Source: Planctomycetaceae bacterium (GTDB taxonomy: Bacteria; Planctomycetota; Planctomycetia; Pirellulales; UBA1268). From it: DNA of 64,000 nucleotides. The notes under the pieces are model-generated. The model saw only the letters and a program-made list of their open reading frames with translations, did not search any database and was not told where the DNA came from. Positions 19,881-47,270 of this stretch are shown here, in pieces. Every line of letters starts with the position of its first letter. Position 1 is the first letter of the stretch. The DNA is taken from positions 861 through 64,860 of the forward strand of contig JBJTQP010000092.1 in assembly GCA_046075685.1 (NCBI GenBank), written 5' to 3'. A program made the position numbers and the translations under genes.

Positions 19881-21464
19881 ATGCGCGGCTTCGTCGTCGG
19901 GGCCTTGGTGGCCGGCGTGGTCGGCATGATGACTGCCGGTGGGGTCACCCTGCTGGCAGAGGAGACGGCCACCGACGTGACGCTCGATGCCGCCGCGGGC
20001 GACGAAGAGGCTTCCAGCCGCGACACGCAACCCGGCGCCGAGTCCGACCTCGCCGAGGAGGCGGAACCCGTCGCCGAGCCTGATGAGGGCCCTGCGACCG
20101 AGAGCACGGTCGCGGCACCGTCGGAACCTGCTGCAGGTCGATCCCGACGCGTCCGCCTGAAGCTCGACGTCATCGGTGAGATCTTCGCCCCGGCGGGGCG
20201 CGACGTGCCTCCGGTGCGGCGCCCCATCACCGTGGACGCGAGGTTCGACTTCGTCGAATCGTCGGTCGGCGCATCCGAGGCCGCCACGCGCCGCTACCGC
20301 GACGCCTCTGCCGACATCCGGGTGGATGACGCGCTGAGCAGGCTGCGACTGCCGGCGGAGGCCCGCGAGGTTCGTGTCATGGTCGTGGGGGCGACGCCGA
20401 TGCCCTACCTCGCAGCCGGGTTTTTGTCGCGCGACGAGTTTGACCTGCTCGAGACGCCGTTCGATCCGCTGCTGCTCGACCGCATCCTGCCCGACGATCC
20501 CGCCATTCCTGCTGACGGCACCTGGTCGATCGCCCCCGACACGGTCGCCGGACTCCTGGCGATCGACACCGTAGAATCCGGAGGCCTCGAGGCGCGGCTG
20601 CGGGAGGTGGTCGACGGTCTGGCCACCGTGTCGATTTCAGGAATCGTCGACGGTGCCGCCAACGGCGTGCCGACGCACGTCACCGTCGAGGGGTCCCTGG
20701 TGGCGGCGGCGAGCGAGACGGCGGCGGGCATGCGACTCGACCGCGGTGTGACGAGCCTGGCGATGACCATGCGGGAACGCCGCGAGGCCAGTCACGTCGC
20801 CCCCGGCTTCGACGTGGAGGCGAAACTCGCTGCTGCCGTCGCGCCGATCGAGCCGGAAGCGTTGGCGGCCAACGCCGATGCCGGAGGCCTTGCCGCGGAG
20901 AGCCGTCCGGGCGGCGTGGGCCGGCCGGGTTTTGTCTGGCAGCATGACGCGGCCGGACGGTACGACCTGGTGCACGATTCCCGCTGGCGGGTGATCGAGG
21001 ATGGTCCGGATGGTCTCGTGATGCGGCTGCTCGATCGCGGAGCCCTCGTCGCGCAGTGCGCGATCGTCGCCCTGCCCCGCGGGCCGGCGCAGTCGCCGGC
21101 CACGATCGCCGAGGTGGAGCGTGACCTCGAGCGGTCATTGGCGGGGCAGTTCGCCAGGTTCGAGCACTCCTCGGAGGCGGTCCGCAGCGACGGCACCCGC
21201 CTGGTGCGGGTGGTGGCCGGCGGCAGCGTGGACGGCCGGCCCTTTCGCTGGGCCCACCACGTGCTGACCAACGCCGCCGGTCAGCGGCTGGCGGCCACCT
21301 TCACGGTGGAGGAGGCGATGCAGAAGCGATTCGGGGAGACGGACCGGGACCTCGTGGACGGCCTCATGCTGCCCCCGCCGGCTGCAGGAGCGGAAACGGC
21401 CTCGTCTGCCGGGGGTGACGGCGACCGCGAGGCACGGCTGCCGCGGGAATCCCGGACGCCTTGA
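19881..21464 (+). CDS. Hypothetical membrane-anchored/secreted protein with an acidic N-terminal linker
   Basis: The ORF runs 19806-21464. The ATG at 19881 gives [26 protein letters not shown], a signal/anchor sequence. No domain was recognised. Confidence 0.6.
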
Positions 21465-21633
21465 CGCTGCCCCGATTCAGGGCGACACTCCTTCGGCTGC
21501 GGTAATGCCCTTCCGCCCGCGTCGGGGCGCGGCTGCAGCACGAGTTCGACAGGAGATCCGCCGGCCCGGGGTGCGAGCAGCACGACGTCCTTCCGGCAGG
21601 CGATCATCCGATCCGCGGCCGGAGGCGTCAGTC

Positions 21634-22134
21634 ATCGAGAAGCAGCATCGCATCAACGAGCAGATCCGGATCAGTCCGATCCGGGTCATCTCCGCCGACG
21701 GCGGGCAACTCGGAATCATCCCCACCGAGGAGGCGATGAGCCTCGCTCGAGAGGCCGGGCTTGATCTGGTGGAGGTGGCGCCCAACGAGAAGCCGCCCGT
21801 CTGCCGGATCATGGACTTCGGCAAGTTCAAGTACCAGCAGAAGAAGAAGCACCACAAGACGCACGTTCATCACGCGAAGATCAAGGAGATCCGCCTTCGT
21901 CCCAAGACGGGCGAGCACGACATCGAGTTCAAGGTCAACCAGGCGAAGGGCTTCCTGCTGCACAAGGACAAGGTGATCGTCTCGGTGGTGTTCCGCGGCC
22001 GCGAACTCGCCCACATCGACGAGGGGCAGCGGGTCATGAAGCAGATCGTGGAGCAACTCGAACCCGTCAGCAAAGTCGAGGCGCCGCCGCAGCAGATGGG
22101 CCGTCGTCTCGTCTGCACGCTCGCCCCGAAGTGA
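21634..22134 (+). CDS. infC: Translation initiation factor IF-3; start codon uncertain, probably non-AUG
   Basis: [68 protein letters not shown] is a classic IF-3 sequence. There is no ATG, GTG or TTG in frame near the conserved N-terminus. An in-frame ATC at 21634 lies 8 nt after GGAGG (21621-21625). The only ATGs (21415, 21505) add 43-73 Arg-rich residues, and the 21415 ATG would also overlap the previous gene. Confidence 0.85.
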
Positions 22135-22189
22135 TCAGCCCCCCACTCACGCACAGACCAACCCGGACACCAGCACGAGGAGACACGCG

Positions 22190-22393
22190 ATGCCGAAGCA
22201 GAAGACCCACAAGGGCGTGAAAAAGCGTTTCCGGATCACCGCCACCGGCAAGGTGAAGCACCGCCGCGCGGGCACGAGCCACCTGCAGGTGCGTCTCACC
22301 GCCAAGCGGAAGCGGAAGCTCCGCGGCACCGGCGTGCTCGCCGAAAGCGACGTGCACCGCATCCACGACGCGCTCGGCAAGTACAGCTACTGA
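22190..22393 (+). CDS. rpmI: 50S ribosomal protein L35
   Basis: MPKQKTHKGVKKRFRITATGKVKHRRAGTSHL..., 67 aa, in the canonical position after infC. Confidence 0.95.
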   Translation: MPKQKTHKGVKKRFRITATGKVKHRRAGTSHLQVRLTAKRKRKLRGTGVLAESDVHRIHDALGKYSY

Positions 22394-22415
22394 ATTCACG
22401 CTCGCACTGCCATCC

Positions 22416-22585
22416 TGGCCAGTGCGAGCTGATGTTTGCTCGCCCTCCAGGCTCGCGGTTTCGCGCCCGGTGCCAGTCCTCTCCTCCGCTTTGGCCAGTG
22501 CGAGCTGATGTGCGCTCGCCCTCCAGGCTCGCGGGTTCAGACCGGGGTCCGGCCCATACTCCTCCGTGGCCAGTGCAGGCTGCGG
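22416..22585 (+). repeat. Tandem 75/76-nt repeat (about 2.3 copies) with internal hairpins, in the rpmI-rplT spacer
   Basis: Copies start at 22416, 22492 and 22567, each beginning TGGCCAGTGC. The first 43 nt of copies 1 and 2 differ at only 2 positions. Each copy carries GCGAGC-N8-GCTCGC plus a second GCTCGC and CCTCC tracts. Confidence 0.75.
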
Positions 22586-22674
22586 TCCGGCGGTCGGGGG
22601 CACGCGCATGAGCCCGGCGCGTTTTGTGCCCCGCAGTGGCCGCAAGGTTCCGTCCGGGTGGTGAACTCACAAAA

Positions 22675-22720
22675 CCCGCCGGCGAAGAGCATGCCACCGC
22701 CGCCGGGCCGCTTTTCCGTT
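22675..22720 (+). terminator. Candidate intrinsic terminator inside the rpmI-rplT spacer
   Basis: CCCGCCGGCG (22675-22684) pairs with CGCCGCCGGG (22698-22707) with 1 mismatch and a 13-nt loop, followed by CCGCTTTTCCGTTTG. Confidence 0.3.
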
Positions 22721-22885
22721 TGATCCGCGAGTCCGCGACAGACCTGCTCGCGGCCCACCGTCCGAATCCCGAGCCGAAAACCCGCTTTCCCACCCAGCGC
22801 CCTTGCATTTCCGCCGATTCACGCCAGATTTTAGGGTTCCCCAGTCCGGGCCCCAGCGGCCCCCAGCCGAGCCAGGTTTCGAGCC

Positions 22886-23263
22886 ATGCGTACCAAGAGC
22901 GTCGTTCCGCGTCTGCGTGCCAAGAAGCGTCTCTTCAAGCGGGTCAAGGGTTCCGTCGGCGGTCGCCGCCGCCTGCTTCGCACCGCCAAGGAGGCGATCA
23001 TCCGCGCCGGCGTCTATGCACGTCGGGATCGGCGGCGCAAGAAGCGCGACTTCCGTCGGCTGTGGATCGTGCGGCTCAACGCCGCCTGCCGCGAGCGGGG
23101 CTTCCGTTACAGCCAGTTGATTGCCGGGCTCGAGAAGATCGGCTGCGAACTCGATCGCCGGACGCTCGCCGAGATGGCGGTGCTCGATCCCAGCGGATTC
23201 GACGTCGTGGCCGCCGAGGTCCGCAAGGCACTCGGCCTGCCGGAGCCGGCCGCGGTCGCGTGA
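22886..23263 (+). CDS. rplT: 50S ribosomal protein L20
   Basis: MRTKSVVPRLRAKKRLFKRVKGSVGGRRRLLRTAKEAIIRAGVYARRDRRRKKRDFRRLWIVRLNAA, 125 aa. Confidence 0.95.
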   Translation: MRTKSVVPRLRAKKRLFKRVKGSVGGRRRLLRTAKEAIIRAGVYARRDRRRKKRDFRRLWIVRLNAACRERGFRYSQLIAGLEKIGCELDRRTLAEMAVLDPSGFDVVAAEVRKALGLPEPAAVA

Positions 23264-23267
23264 CCCC

Positions 23268-24287
23268 GTGACAGGCGTGCCGCTCGACACGTTCCGCGCC
23301 GAACTGGAGCGGCTGCGGGCCGACGCTGATGCCGCGCTCGGGGCGGCGGTCGACGCTGTGGCGCTGGAGTCGTGCCGGATCGAGTTTCTCGGCGCCAAGA
23401 GCGGCCGCCTCAAGGCGATCCAGAAGTCGCTGGGCGGGCTCGCGCCGGCCGACAAGCCGGCGGGTGGCAAGCAGTTCAACGACACGAAGAACGCGATCAC
23501 CGCATCCTTCGAGGCCGCCCAGGCGCGCGTGGCGACAGGCGGTCTCGGATCAGCGGCCTCGGCGATCGACGTCACGCTTCCGGGTGACGAAATCCGCCTG
23601 GGCCATCGGCATCCGATCACGCGGACGATCCGTCGCGTCCAGGAGATCATGGGCCGGCTGGGCTTCGAGAGCGTTGATGGTCCCGAGATCGAGGACCAGT
23701 GGCACAACTTCGAGGCCCTGGCGATCCCGGCGGAGCACCCCGCCCGTGACCCGCTCGACAATTTCTACCTCGCGGTCGCCCGCGGTGCCGATCCGCTGCT
23801 CCTGCGGTCGCAGACCAGCACGGTGCAGATCCGCGTCATGGAGAGCCGCGAGCCGCCGCTGCGGATCGTGTCGCTGGGCCGCGTGTACCGCCCGGATACG
23901 GCCGACGCCACCCACTACCCGATGTTTCACCAGGTGGAGGGCCTGCTCGTCGAACCCGGCATCACGATGGCCCACCTCAAGAGCGTGCTGCGGATGTTCG
24001 CCTCCAGCTTCCTGGGCGGAGATGTGAAGGTGCGGTTTCGGCCGTCGTTCTTCCCGTTCACCGAGCCGAGCGTCGAGGTCGACATGGAGTGGGGCGGCCG
24101 CTGGGTCGAGATGGGCGGAGCCGGCATGGTGGATCCCGCCGTGCTGCAGGCGGTGGGCTACGACCCCGATACGGTCACCGGGTTCGCCTTCGGCCTGGGG
24201 GTGGAGCGGATCGCCGCACGCCGCCATGGGGTCGCCGACATCCGCGACTTCTACCGCAACGACGTCAGGTTCCTGAGGCAGTTCTGA
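23268..24287 (+). CDS. pheS: Phenylalanine--tRNA ligase alpha subunit
   Basis: A GTG start at 23268 gives 339 aa. HPITRTIRRVQEIMGRLGF, FEALAIPAEHPARD, LLRSQTSTVQIR, YRPDTADATHYPMFHQVEGL and FFPFTEPS are present. The ATG at 23121 lies inside rplT in another frame. Confidence 0.9.
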   Translation: MTGVPLDTFRAELERLRADADAALGAAVDAVALESCRIEFLGAKSGRLKAIQKSLGGLAPADKPAGGKQFNDTKNAITASFEAAQARVATGGLGSAASAIDVTLPGDEIRLGHRHPITRTIRRVQEIMGRLGFESVDGPEIEDQWHNFEALAIPAEHPARDPLDNFYLAVARGADPLLLRSQTSTVQIRVMESREPPLRIVSLGRVYRPDTADATHYPMFHQVEGLLVEPGITMAHLKSVLRMFASSFLGGDVKVRFRPSFFPFTEPSVEVDMEWGGRWVEMGGAGMVDPAVLQAVGYDPDTVTGFAFGLGVERIAARRHGVADIRDFYRNDVRFLRQF

Positions 24288-46168: not shown

Positions 46169-47270
46169 CCGGCCGTCCGCGGATGGTTCCGCGGATGAGC
46201 ACGTCTCCCCCCGGGAAGGACACGTCCTCCACCTGCAGCCGTGCCGGCTCGGTGAGCCCGTCCTCGCGTGCCGTCCCGCCTCCGAGAATCCTCGGGGCGA
46301 CGAAGACCCAGGCTTCGTCGACGAGATCCGCGGCGAACAGGCCGCCGAGCACGCTCGGGCCGCCCTCCACGAGCAGGTTCGTGAGCCGTCGCCGGCCGAG
46401 TTCTTGAAGCAGGTCTGCGGTGCGGTCGACCGCACCACAGGCCTGCCCGACCCAGACGTCGCAGCCGGCCGATTTCAGCGCGGCGACGCGTTCGGGCGGC
46501 GCTTCCGGGCCCGCTGCCACGAGCACCGGCACCTCCCGCGCGGTGCGGACGAGACGCGCAGCGAGGGGAAGCCGGGCCCTCGAGTCGAGCACGATCCGCA
46601 GCGGCTGCCTGGGACCTGCGGTCGCGGCCCCGGATGGACGTGCGGTGAGCAGCGGATCGTCGGTGAGGGCGGTGCCGATGCCGACGGCGATCGCGTCGAC
46701 CCTCGTCCGCAGATCGTGGACCAGCTCGCGAGACGGATGCGACGAGATCCAGCGATCCTGGCCGGCGGGGGCCGCGAAGCGGCCGTCGAGACTGATCGCC
46801 CACTTGGCGATCACCCAGGGCCGGCCCTGGGTGATCAGCGTGCGAAATGCCGCGGTGAGCCGCTCGGCTTCCGCCGCCAGCAGCCCGGTCTCGACCGCGA
46901 TGCCGGCTGCGCGAAGCGCCGCCACTCCGCGGCCCGCGACTTCGTGATACGGATCACCTGCCGCGATCACCACCCGGGTGATGCCGGCCGCCTGGATCGC
47001 CGCGGTGCACGGCGGCGTCTTGCCGTGATGGCAGCAGGGCTCGAGGGTCACGACGAGCGTCGCGCCCCGGGCACGATCACCGGCGGCCAGCAGGGCCGCG
47101 ACCTCCGCGTGCGGCCCGCCGAACCGCTCGTGCCAGCCCTCGCCGACGATCACGCCGTCGGCCACGACCACGGCTCCGACCTGCGGATTGGGCTCGACGA
47201 ATCCGCGGCCGCGGGCCGCGAGCTCGAGGGCCCGTCGCATCGCCGCCTCGTCGCTGGGCGTCAGCGCCAT
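46125..47270 (-). CDS. ribD: Bifunctional riboflavin biosynthesis protein RibD (deaminase/reductase)
   Basis: MRRALELAARGRGFVEPNPQVGAVVV...GWHERFGGPHAEVAAL...TLEPCCHHGKTPPC is the deaminase zinc motif. The C-terminus has a reductase domain. Confidence 0.92.
   Translation of the reverse strand: MALTPSDEAAMRRALELAARGRGFVEPNPQVGAVVVADGVIVGEGWHERFGGPHAEVAALLAAGDRARGATLVVTLEPCCHHGKTPPCTAAIQAAGITRVVIAAGDPYHEVAGRGVAALRAAGIAVETGLLAAEAERLTAAFRTLITQGRPWVIAKWAISLDGRFAAPAGQDRWISSHPSRELVHDLRTRVDAIAVGIGTALTDDPLLTARPSGAATAGPRQPLRIVLDSRARLPLAARLVRTAREVPVLVAAGPEAPPERVAALKSAGCDVWVGQACGAVDRTADLLQELGRRRLTNLLVEGGPSVLGGLFAADLVDEAWVFVAPRILGGGTAREDGLTEPARLQVEDVSFPGGDVLIRGTIRGRPVISPECRGSRSASG

Follow-up and report, generated by a model that had tools for sequence, protein, structure and literature searches.

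A variable tandem repeat and a predicted rplT promoter in the gap between rpmI and rplT of a Pirellulales bacterium

Introduction

Why are rpmI and rplT, which code for proteins L35 and L20 of the ribosome, separated by almost half a kilobase in a planctomycete genome? In the stretch analysed here (64,000 nt of contig JBJTQP010000092.1, assembly GCA_046075685.1, from a Planctomycetaceae bacterium; hereafter the window), the plus strand carries infC (to 22134), rpmI (22190-22393), a gap of 492 nt (22394-22885), rplT (22886-23263), pheS and pheT in this order, and the L20 homologues place the host within the Pirellulales, Planctomycetota. An earlier note on this DNA had given the rpmI stop, the rplT start and the length of the gap correctly. 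It regarded the gap as a structured spacer that splits a normally contiguous gene pair, and suggested that it might be a relocated or novel autoregulatory leader responding to L20 or, alternatively, an inserted repeat element.

Rather than a regulatory leader, the gap is probably an ordinary intergenic region that lies between two separate transcription units and is composite: a repeat array, a hairpin with a T-tract and an rplT promoter follow one another. The array itself is an interspersed variable tandem repeat and thus a known kind of element, while the cross-phylum hairpin family that shares its 19-nt core is intriguing and unexplained.

A strain-variable repeat array behind rpmI

The upstream part of the gap, from 22394 to ~22585, is probably an array in decay and is made up of the following segments:

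22394-22415, plus strand: segment a, ATTCACGCTCGCACTGCCATCC, which starts 1 nt past the rpmI stop and holds the 3' stem arm GCTCGCACTG and a CATCC motif
22396-22432, plus strand: very stable hairpin with a perfect 10-bp core (22400-22409 paired with 22420-22429) and the loop region CCATCCTGGC
22416-22456, plus strand: repeat segment X1, TGGCCAGTGCGAGCTGATGTTT with the invariant 19-mer GCTCGCCCTCCAGGCTCGC at 22438-22456
22457-22491, plus strand: tail b1, 35 nt, containing CCTCTCCTCC
22492-22532, plus strand: repeat segment X2, with the 19-mer at 22514-22532; the sister strain L001 has an extra complete 65-nt unit here
22533-22566, plus strand: tail b2, 34 nt, homologous to b1 and containing CTCCTCC
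22567-22585, plus strand: degenerate X stub TGGCCAGTGCAGGCTGCGG, recognised from the sequence and a repeat search

The direct repeats at 22416-22479 and 22492-22555 are 83% identical and arranged head-to-tail with a spacing of 76 nt, and their 20- and 21-nt cores occur exactly twice each in the window, against 0.01-0.02 occurrences expected. Of the roughly 2.3 copies of a 75/76-nt unit that had been described earlier, two copies at 76-nt spacing are thus present, whereas the third, at 22567, amounts to a stub of ~19 nt. Tandem Repeats Finder left the 76-nt repeat unreported owing to its low score, while a direct-repeat search detected it. A complete unit comprises ~65 nt and consists of the arm CAGTGCGAGC, 8 nt, the 19-mer GCTCGCCCTCCAGGCTCGC, a further 8 nt, the arm GCTCGCACTG and then CATCCTGGC. 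In addition, the CCUCC and CUCCUCC tracts noted before are well founded: CCTCC occurs four times within 22394-22580 (187 nt) compared with 0.33 expected, which corresponds to a 12-fold enrichment, though only about two of the four tracts are independent because the array is duplicated.

The variable nature of the array emerges from comparison with L001 (contig JBJTJD010000121.1, GCA_046095325.1), which encodes an identical L20. L001 and the window are ~99.8% identical and differ by five single-nucleotide polymorphisms in the 2.5 kb upstream, so L001 represents a different strain of the same species. The gap is 100% identical between the two, save for one insertion of 65 nt in L001, which is exactly one repeat unit, sits at the position of the second repeat and provides L001 with three full 19-mer units. 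Expressed in segment types, where a stands for ATT(T)CACGCTCGCACTGCCATCC, X for TGGCCAGTGCGAGCTGnnGTnn plus the 19-mer and b for the 34-35-nt tail, L001 reads [a X b X][a X b X'], as against a X b X b X' in the window, which is devoid of one X+a; segment a recurs once more in L001, 3' of a 19-mer. Gain or loss of whole modules between near-identical strains is unexpected for a regulatory structure but expected for a tandem repeat that is subject to unequal recombination or slippage. Units of the array would accordingly be added and lost through recombination or slippage among the copies, and the array offers a ready strain marker of the variable-number tandem repeat (VNTR) type for this uncultured lineage.

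With respect to folding, the 10-bp hairpin previously reported directly behind the stop codon has exactly complementary arms, and its extended form at 22396-22432, flanked by ATTCAC and TGATG, reaches -24.4 kcal/mol (z = -5.7), a stability that none of 200 shuffled sequences attained. The GCGAGC-N8-GCTCGC hairpin ascribed to each copy is present as well, but it folds like shuffled sequence (z = -0.02), and no unusual folding was found for the repeat part (z = -0.37) or for the gap as a whole (z = -1.07). Alternative pairings, from which mutually exclusive and hence attenuator-like folds had been deduced, do exist; they are a trivial consequence of repetition, because the arm CAGTGCGAGC is part of the repeated unit. 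Elsewhere in the window, no short hairpin has a CATCC loop, and three strong palindromes or hairpins (2758-2790, 46409-46446 and 46809-46836) contain neither this loop nor the 19-mer. Two further classes of repeat were considered and dismissed, namely CRISPR, since the whole unit is repeated and spacers are missing, and integron attC sites, for which inspection by eye revealed no RYYYAAC/GTTRRRY cores.

Conserved sequence upstream of rplT and the two transcription units

The arrangement upstream of rplT was compared among 13 related loci, which were gathered by exact-protein look-up of L20 homologues. Only in the closest relatives, L124 (L20 94% identical) and L002 (92%), does rpmI lie directly upstream of rplT, and the gaps of both measure ~150 nt and contain no repeats. 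An apparent gap of 304 nt in L002 is a scaffolding artefact (2855-2953), in which a flank of ~60 nt is duplicated on both sides of an N-run, the real length being ~150 nt. In L003-L011 (L20 84-90% identical) and in L123, rplT-pheS-pheT is found behind unrelated genes, including a gene for a CLIPPER-domain protein, one encoding a RibD-like C-terminus and a divergent gene; in L003, L004, L007 and L010, the same-strand gene upstream of rplT encodes a large CLIPPER-domain protein and is not rpmI. These varied upstream genes imply that the order around rplT was repeatedly reshuffled in the clade while a promoter block was retained. The notion that rpmI and rplT are normally contiguous therefore fails for this clade, in which rplT often follows unrelated genes, and it is misleading to regard the spacer as splitting the pair, given that rplT-pheST is already separate, carries a conserved promoter-like block and often does not adjoin rpmI.

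Three features occupy the downstream part of the gap:

22582-22721, plus strand: imperfect 130-nt hairpin (22582-22711) followed by TTTTCCGTTT, at which the infC-rpmI transcript may end (candidate terminator or 3'-end structure)
22803-22831, plus strand: promoter-like block of rplT, with a -35 element TTGCAT (22803-22808), 16-17 nt, a -10 element (C)AGATT (22825-22831) and then TAGGG
22832-22885, plus strand: putative rplT 5' untranslated region (5'UTR) of ~50 nt, without a Shine-Dalgarno sequence and with the 10-nt tandem CGGCCCCCAG in 2.1 copies

The promoter-like block, in its general form TTGCA(T/A)-N16-17-nAnA(T/G)T followed by (T/A)AGGGG, is present in 12 of 12 related loci irrespective of the upstream gene, at a distance of 50-130 nt from the rplT ATG (~55 nt in the window). 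The corresponding regular expression has a single match on both strands of the 64 kb, at 22803-22831, against 0.04 expected. The block is predicted to be a sigma-70-type promoter of rplT, a reading that agrees with its spacing and with the conservation of A and T at positions 2 and 6 of the -10 element. It has in common with a stand-alone rplT-pheST operon driven by such a promoter that the block precedes rplT at this distance in every one of the twelve loci and that rplT and pheS overlap or abut; it deviates in its -35 element, TTGCAT in place of TTGACA, and in its -10 element, nAnA(T/G)T, the promoter itself being a prediction. Taken together, rplT-pheST looks like a separate transcription unit in this Pirellulales clade, and because the repeat and hairpin material is located entirely upstream of the conserved promoter, it would not be part of the rplT mRNA.

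Downstream of the block, the putative 5'UTR ranges from 27 to 109 nt among the loci and is not conserved in sequence; that of the window folds at chance level (z = -0.12), and a Shine-Dalgarno sequence preceding rplT is absent in all 12 loci compared. The 10-nt tandem occupies 22847-22867, where the close relative L125 reads GGGCCCGTCGGGCCC.

Upstream of the block, the long hairpin at 22582-22711 (-79.9 kcal/mol, z = -2.8, equalled by 3 of 200 shuffles) forms a 130-nt stem with a branched or interrupted interior and directly abuts TTTTCCGTTT. It is identical in L001 and absent from L002 and L124. A terminator-like stem with T-tract had been placed at 22675-22720; the short local stem, 22675-22707, is at chance level (z = -0.12), and it is the far larger 130-nt hairpin that ends at the T-tract.

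The following sequence of events is thus proposed for the locus. The stable hairpin, which starts 3-6 nt past the L35 stop, may shield the infC-rpmI mRNA at its 3' end, and the 130-nt hairpin together with the T-tract (22582-22721) probably terminates this transcript. The promoter at 22803-22831, conserved among relatives and active by prediction, would then drive rplT-pheS-pheT from a short and unconserved 5'UTR. Concerning annotation, a long rpmI-rplT gap should not be taken as a ribosomal-protein leader. Moreover, as rplT-pheS-pheT seemingly has a promoter of its own and often lacks linkage to infC-rpmI, L20 cannot arise there by coupling to rpmI of the E. coli type.

Arrays behind other planctomycete genes

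A scan of a genome collection with the 19-mer yielded at least 100 stretches, most of them coding or chance matches in high-G+C genomes. Among the matches listed, four other planctomycete loci feature tandem arrays that contain the 19-mer unchanged. In the orthologous loci L032 and L042, an array of differing copy number lies behind the gene of an MFS transporter; in L071 the array follows a SulP permease gene and in L074, with 3.5 units of 99 nt, the gene of MetRS. All four arrays start 2-5 nt past the stop codon and are oriented as the upstream gene. Each of their units opens with (T/A)CACG and a hairpin whose loop is CCATCC(N)TGG-like, comparable to CACGC-TCGCACTGCCATCCTGGCCAGTGCGA in the window. 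A single metagenome-assembled genome (MAG; Loclat_bin-01959) accounts for L032, L071 and L074, as three of its contigs.

The window repeat therefore appears, by sequence comparison, to belong to a low-copy interspersed family that resides behind the stop codons of unrelated planctomycete genes and is apparently undescribed. This lends support to the inserted repeat element contemplated in the earlier note. The dispersal of the unit over unrelated sites, which had been named there as speaking against a leader, is found at the level of the family, in other planctomycete genomes.

Several known elements are comparable. The MIRU-type variable-number tandem repeats of mycobacteria, reportedly described by Supply et al. 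in 1997, share with the array the unit size (40-100 nt), the short tandem arrangement, the location in gaps between co-directional genes, the occurrence at several loci in one orientation relative to transcription and a strain-variable copy number. On the contrary, there is no sequence similarity, the present unit consists of a hairpin whose 19-nt core is invariant, and the small open reading frames (ORFs) of MIRU, which overlap flanking stop and start codons, have no counterpart in the rpmI-rplT gap. BOX elements of Streptococcus pneumoniae have the modular structure boxA-boxB(n)-boxC and are likewise modular intergenic repeats with variable internal tandem modules and stable predicted hairpins, but differ in sequence and host, and no A/B/C-like order of modules was seen in the array. 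REP elements are palindromes of 20-40 bp with an unpaired GTAG or CGTC tag and high copy number, which have been reported in Planctomycetes (PMC3733652). REP, BIME and REPIN elements resemble the array as GC-rich extragenic hairpins just behind stop codons, often clustered, for which roles in mRNA 3'-end protection and termination have been proposed. They differ from the window unit, which measures ~65 nt, has no GTAG or CGTC by its stem, is arranged head-to-tail instead of in inverted pairs and occupies a sole locus in 64 kb. Association with a RAYT transposase is a further trait of REP elements. The likeliest interpretation of the array is a passive or mildly structural passenger of the MIRU, REP or BOX kind.

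A hairpin around the 19-mer in Solirubrobacterales and its possible relatives in other phyla

About one quarter of the 19-mer matches listed share a non-coding architecture, whose features are enriched over controls as follows:

Stem spanning the 19-mer: 28 of 114 matches, 7% of controls
CATCC 17-23 nt downstream of the 19-mer: 16 of 114 matches, 3.8% of controls
Flanking direct repeats: 7 of 114 matches, 0.4% of controls

The best defined group is represented by an alignment (A4) of 11 loci of Solirubrobacterales (L024, L031, L036, L043, L044, L056, L084, L091, L099, L107 and L117), in which a two-helix stem, the invariant 19-mer GCTCGCCCTCCAGGCTCGC, 4-7 nt and the returning stem are followed by UCAUCCGGCUG. 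Within A4, the paired fraction of cells is 94%, and compensatory changes are seen in 10 of the 13 pairs; the covariation score is 0.64 compared with 0.16 in shuffles (0/500), and the pairing collapses when partners are slid. L028, from Solirubrobacterales or related Actinomycetota, carries this hairpin too. The complete unit of L001 (2533-2604), which is missing from the window, follows a like plan, CAGTGCGAGC-N8-19mer-N8-GCTCGCACTG-C-CATCCTGGC, with an enclosing stem of 10 bp. Among control positions, a stem of at least 10 bp around the site combined with CATCC 15-25 nt downstream has a frequency of 6e-5. A covariance model (R1) built from the Solirubrobacterales loci alone assigned 68 bits to true members, 32.4 bits over the full length to the L001 unit (E ~3e-4), up to ~29 bits to likely coding matches that contain the 19-mer and 19.7-22.1 bits to the two copies of the window, which lack the enclosing stem. 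As R1 separates planctomycete units from coding matches weakly (32 versus 29 bits), the family link is not based on this model; the shared plan nevertheless makes it likely that the planctomycete unit is linked to the Solirubrobacterales hairpins.

In L117 and L122, the hairpin lies between hypD and hypE, genes judged by flanking motifs, with its stem over the downstream start region. Here, the sense strand is the complement of the 19-mer and exhibits GGAGG, whereas the planctomycete sense strand exhibits CCUCC. The opposite sense strands argue against a single conserved RNA function and leave room for an origin at the DNA level, be it mobile or recombinational. Conservation at the protein level was ruled out, since the reading frame of the 19-mer differs among loci. 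Rfam searches of 12 related loci identified only tRNA and tmRNA and no family for the hairpin, viral contigs contained no match to the 19-mer, and among 8 million papers searched for it and its sub-strings none had a match.

Some individual loci deserve mention. L017 (tmRNA), L057 and L111 (tRNA-Ala) carry inserts of 55-65 nt with the 19-mer at their end, each situated between the complete 3' end of the tRNA or tmRNA gene, an identity confirmed by Rfam, and a duplicate of its last 22-26 nt, which looks like a miniature insertion with target duplication, and L120 contains an insert of ~190 nt between 45-nt direct repeats. In L054 (7487-7564), a Proteobacteria MAG, 2.5 tandem units of 30 nt with the 19-mer occur right behind the stop of an rpsI-like gene (...FQFSKR*), a second case of the 19-mer directly behind a ribosomal-protein gene, in another phylum.

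It is a tentative proposal, and one that may well prove wrong, that the unit belongs to an undescribed family of small structured elements in several phyla, either a hairpin-targeting mobile element or a portable cassette for translational coupling or termination. Such a family may be characterized by a locus-specific covarying stem, the 19-nt core GCTCGCCCTCCAGGCTCGC as a mini-hairpin showing CCUCCA or UGGAGG, and CATCC 15-25 nt downstream. It may extend over Pirellulales and other Planctomycetota, Solirubrobacterales (Actinomycetota) and a few Proteobacteria, and may be placed at gene boundaries, that is past stops, over starts and at tRNA or tmRNA 3' ends, sometimes with duplicated flanks. 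If true, the same 19-nt core and architecture at gene boundaries in unrelated phyla would point to an uncatalogued structured element, mobile or portable, which Rfam 15 does not contain.

Alternative explanations

According to the idea that originally drew attention to the gap, it would be a leader or attenuator responsive to L20 or another ribosomal protein, which controls rplT-pheST via exclusive hairpins and a terminator-like stem. Leaders of this kind are known only from Gammaproteobacteria, Firmicutes and one deltaproteobacterial candidate, where they mimic the 23S site by two G-C pairs and an AA dimer (PMC7247131), and they include the E. coli rpmI-leader pseudoknot and the Bacillus L20 leader RF00558 (PMC1865079, PMC3616713). 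The gap resembles them in its position in the infC-rpmI-rplT neighbourhood and its hairpins, the arm 22400-22409 can pair with either 22420-22429 or 22496-22505, a hairpin with T-tract lies downstream, and known L20 leaders use different scaffolds in different phyla (PMC7247131). However, a cmscan of the window against Rfam 15 returned no match at gathering thresholds, and at E <= 10 only three chance-level matches, none to a ribosomal leader, were obtained within 21300-23400; the rRNA-mimic features were not identifiable in any conserved context here either. Moreover, the segment is absent in the closest relatives that have this gene order, varies by whole units between near-identical strains and precedes the conserved promoter, which places it outside the presumed rplT mRNA and leaves the promoter-like block as the only conserved part of the gap. 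Shuffled sequences fold as well as the competing GCGAGC/GCTCGC hairpin and as the local terminator stem do, and the repeat recurs behind non-ribosomal genes. A leader is hence highly improbable. An assembly artefact, which would make the repeats spurious, is even harder to credit: although both sequences stem from metagenome-type assemblies, which mishandle tandem repeats, and L002 shows a scaffolding artefact with an N-run and duplicated flank at the same locus, the two independent assemblies contain identical unit sequences and differ by a whole unit only, the copies have diverged to 83% identity, and related arrays exist in several other genomes.

The two remaining alternatives concern the nature of the array. 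It might be a functional 3'-UTR element of the infC-rpmI mRNA, which stabilises the 3' end, tunes L35 synthesis by impeding ribosomes that terminate or yields a small, C-rich RNA able to base-pair with Shine-Dalgarno sequences. In E. coli, the 3' ends of mRNAs are protected by REP hairpins, and according to Liang, Rudd and Deutscher in 2015 those within ~15 nt of the stop reportedly lower expression of the upstream gene. In favour of such an element are arrays that begin 1-5 nt past the stop in the orientation of the upstream gene in four independent planctomycete loci, as well as stable hairpins less than 15 nt from the stop, the four exposed CCUCC tracts and the enrichment of CCTCC. Four loci in the same orientation are weak statistics, though (~1 in 8), the sense strand at hypD-hypE of Solirubrobacterales carries the opposite strand (GGAGG), and copy number varies by strain and by orthologous locus, with near relatives devoid of an array, so that any 3'-UTR function would be dispensable; such an element is considered unlikely. 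Somewhat better placed, yet still rather doubtful, is the possibility that the unit represents, or descends from, a small non-autonomous mobile element, which enters near hairpins or gene ends, duplicates its flanks and builds arrays by repeated insertion and not by slippage. The inserts at tRNA and tmRNA genes with their duplicated 3' ends, the insert of L120, the excess of flanking direct repeats over controls, the segment ATT(T)CACGCTCGCACTGC behind the rpmI stop of L001, which is repeated 3' of a 19-mer, and the same architecture in different phyla are in line with mobility. Conversely, no associated transposase or recombinase turned up, albeit no systematic search was made, viral contigs gave no match, and the unit lacks terminal inverted repeats as well as both tags, GTAG and CGTC, of the known REP super-families (PMC3733652). 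The difference between L001 and the window is equally well explained by unequal recombination inside a higher-order repeat [a-X-b-X]x2.

The preferred interpretation, a composite intergenic region with a passive array, likewise has observations that weigh against it. The TTGCAT element agrees with TTGACA in no more than 3 of the 6 positions, and a consensus promoter scan of 21300-23400 did not call the block; a consensus terminator scan of the same region did not call the long hairpin either, which is unconserved outside the species. As regards an interspersed family, blastn-short, nhmmer and fuzzy 19-mer searches found no further copy of the unit in the 64-kb window, the genome of the window itself was not among the matches listed in the 19-mer genome scan, and a metagenome scan for the 19-mer followed by CACG returned 11 matches without a planctomycete array. 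The differing copy number of L001 and the window could reflect repeat collapse in one of two short-read assemblies. Finally, the CCTCC enrichment, the constant orientation and the proximity to stop codons hint at a role at the RNA level and are left unaccounted for by a passive array.

Flanking genes and further features of the window

The gap is bordered by two genes:

22190-22393, plus strand: rpmI (L35), with the stop TGA at 22391-22393, taken from the ORF list and confirmed by Pfam Ribosomal_L35p on the identical L001 gene
22886-23263, plus strand: rplT (L20), with a stop that overlaps the GTG at the pheS start (GTGA, 23260-23263)

No ORF links rpmI to rplT across the gap, no ATG or GTG overlaps the rpmI stop, and none of five gap ORFs tested contains a Pfam domain; rpmI closes the upstream infC-rpmI unit. 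The G+C content is 71% for the window and 68% for the gap. Along with the GTGA at 23260-23263 of the window, a 4-nt overlap of rplT and pheS is seen in the relatives L003-L011, and translational coupling of L20 and PheS is suggested. ARAGORN detected neither tRNA nor tmRNA genes in the window.

The start codon of infC is probably a non-canonical ATC at 21634, 8 nt past GGAGG (window 21621-21636), while the ORF finder puts the start of the infC ORF upstream, at a GTG at 21415. An unusual infC start codon fits the usual autoregulation of IF3. Other strong perfect or near-perfect palindromes or hairpins, with arms of 15-22 nt, are found in the window at 2758-2790, 46409-46446 and 46809-46836.

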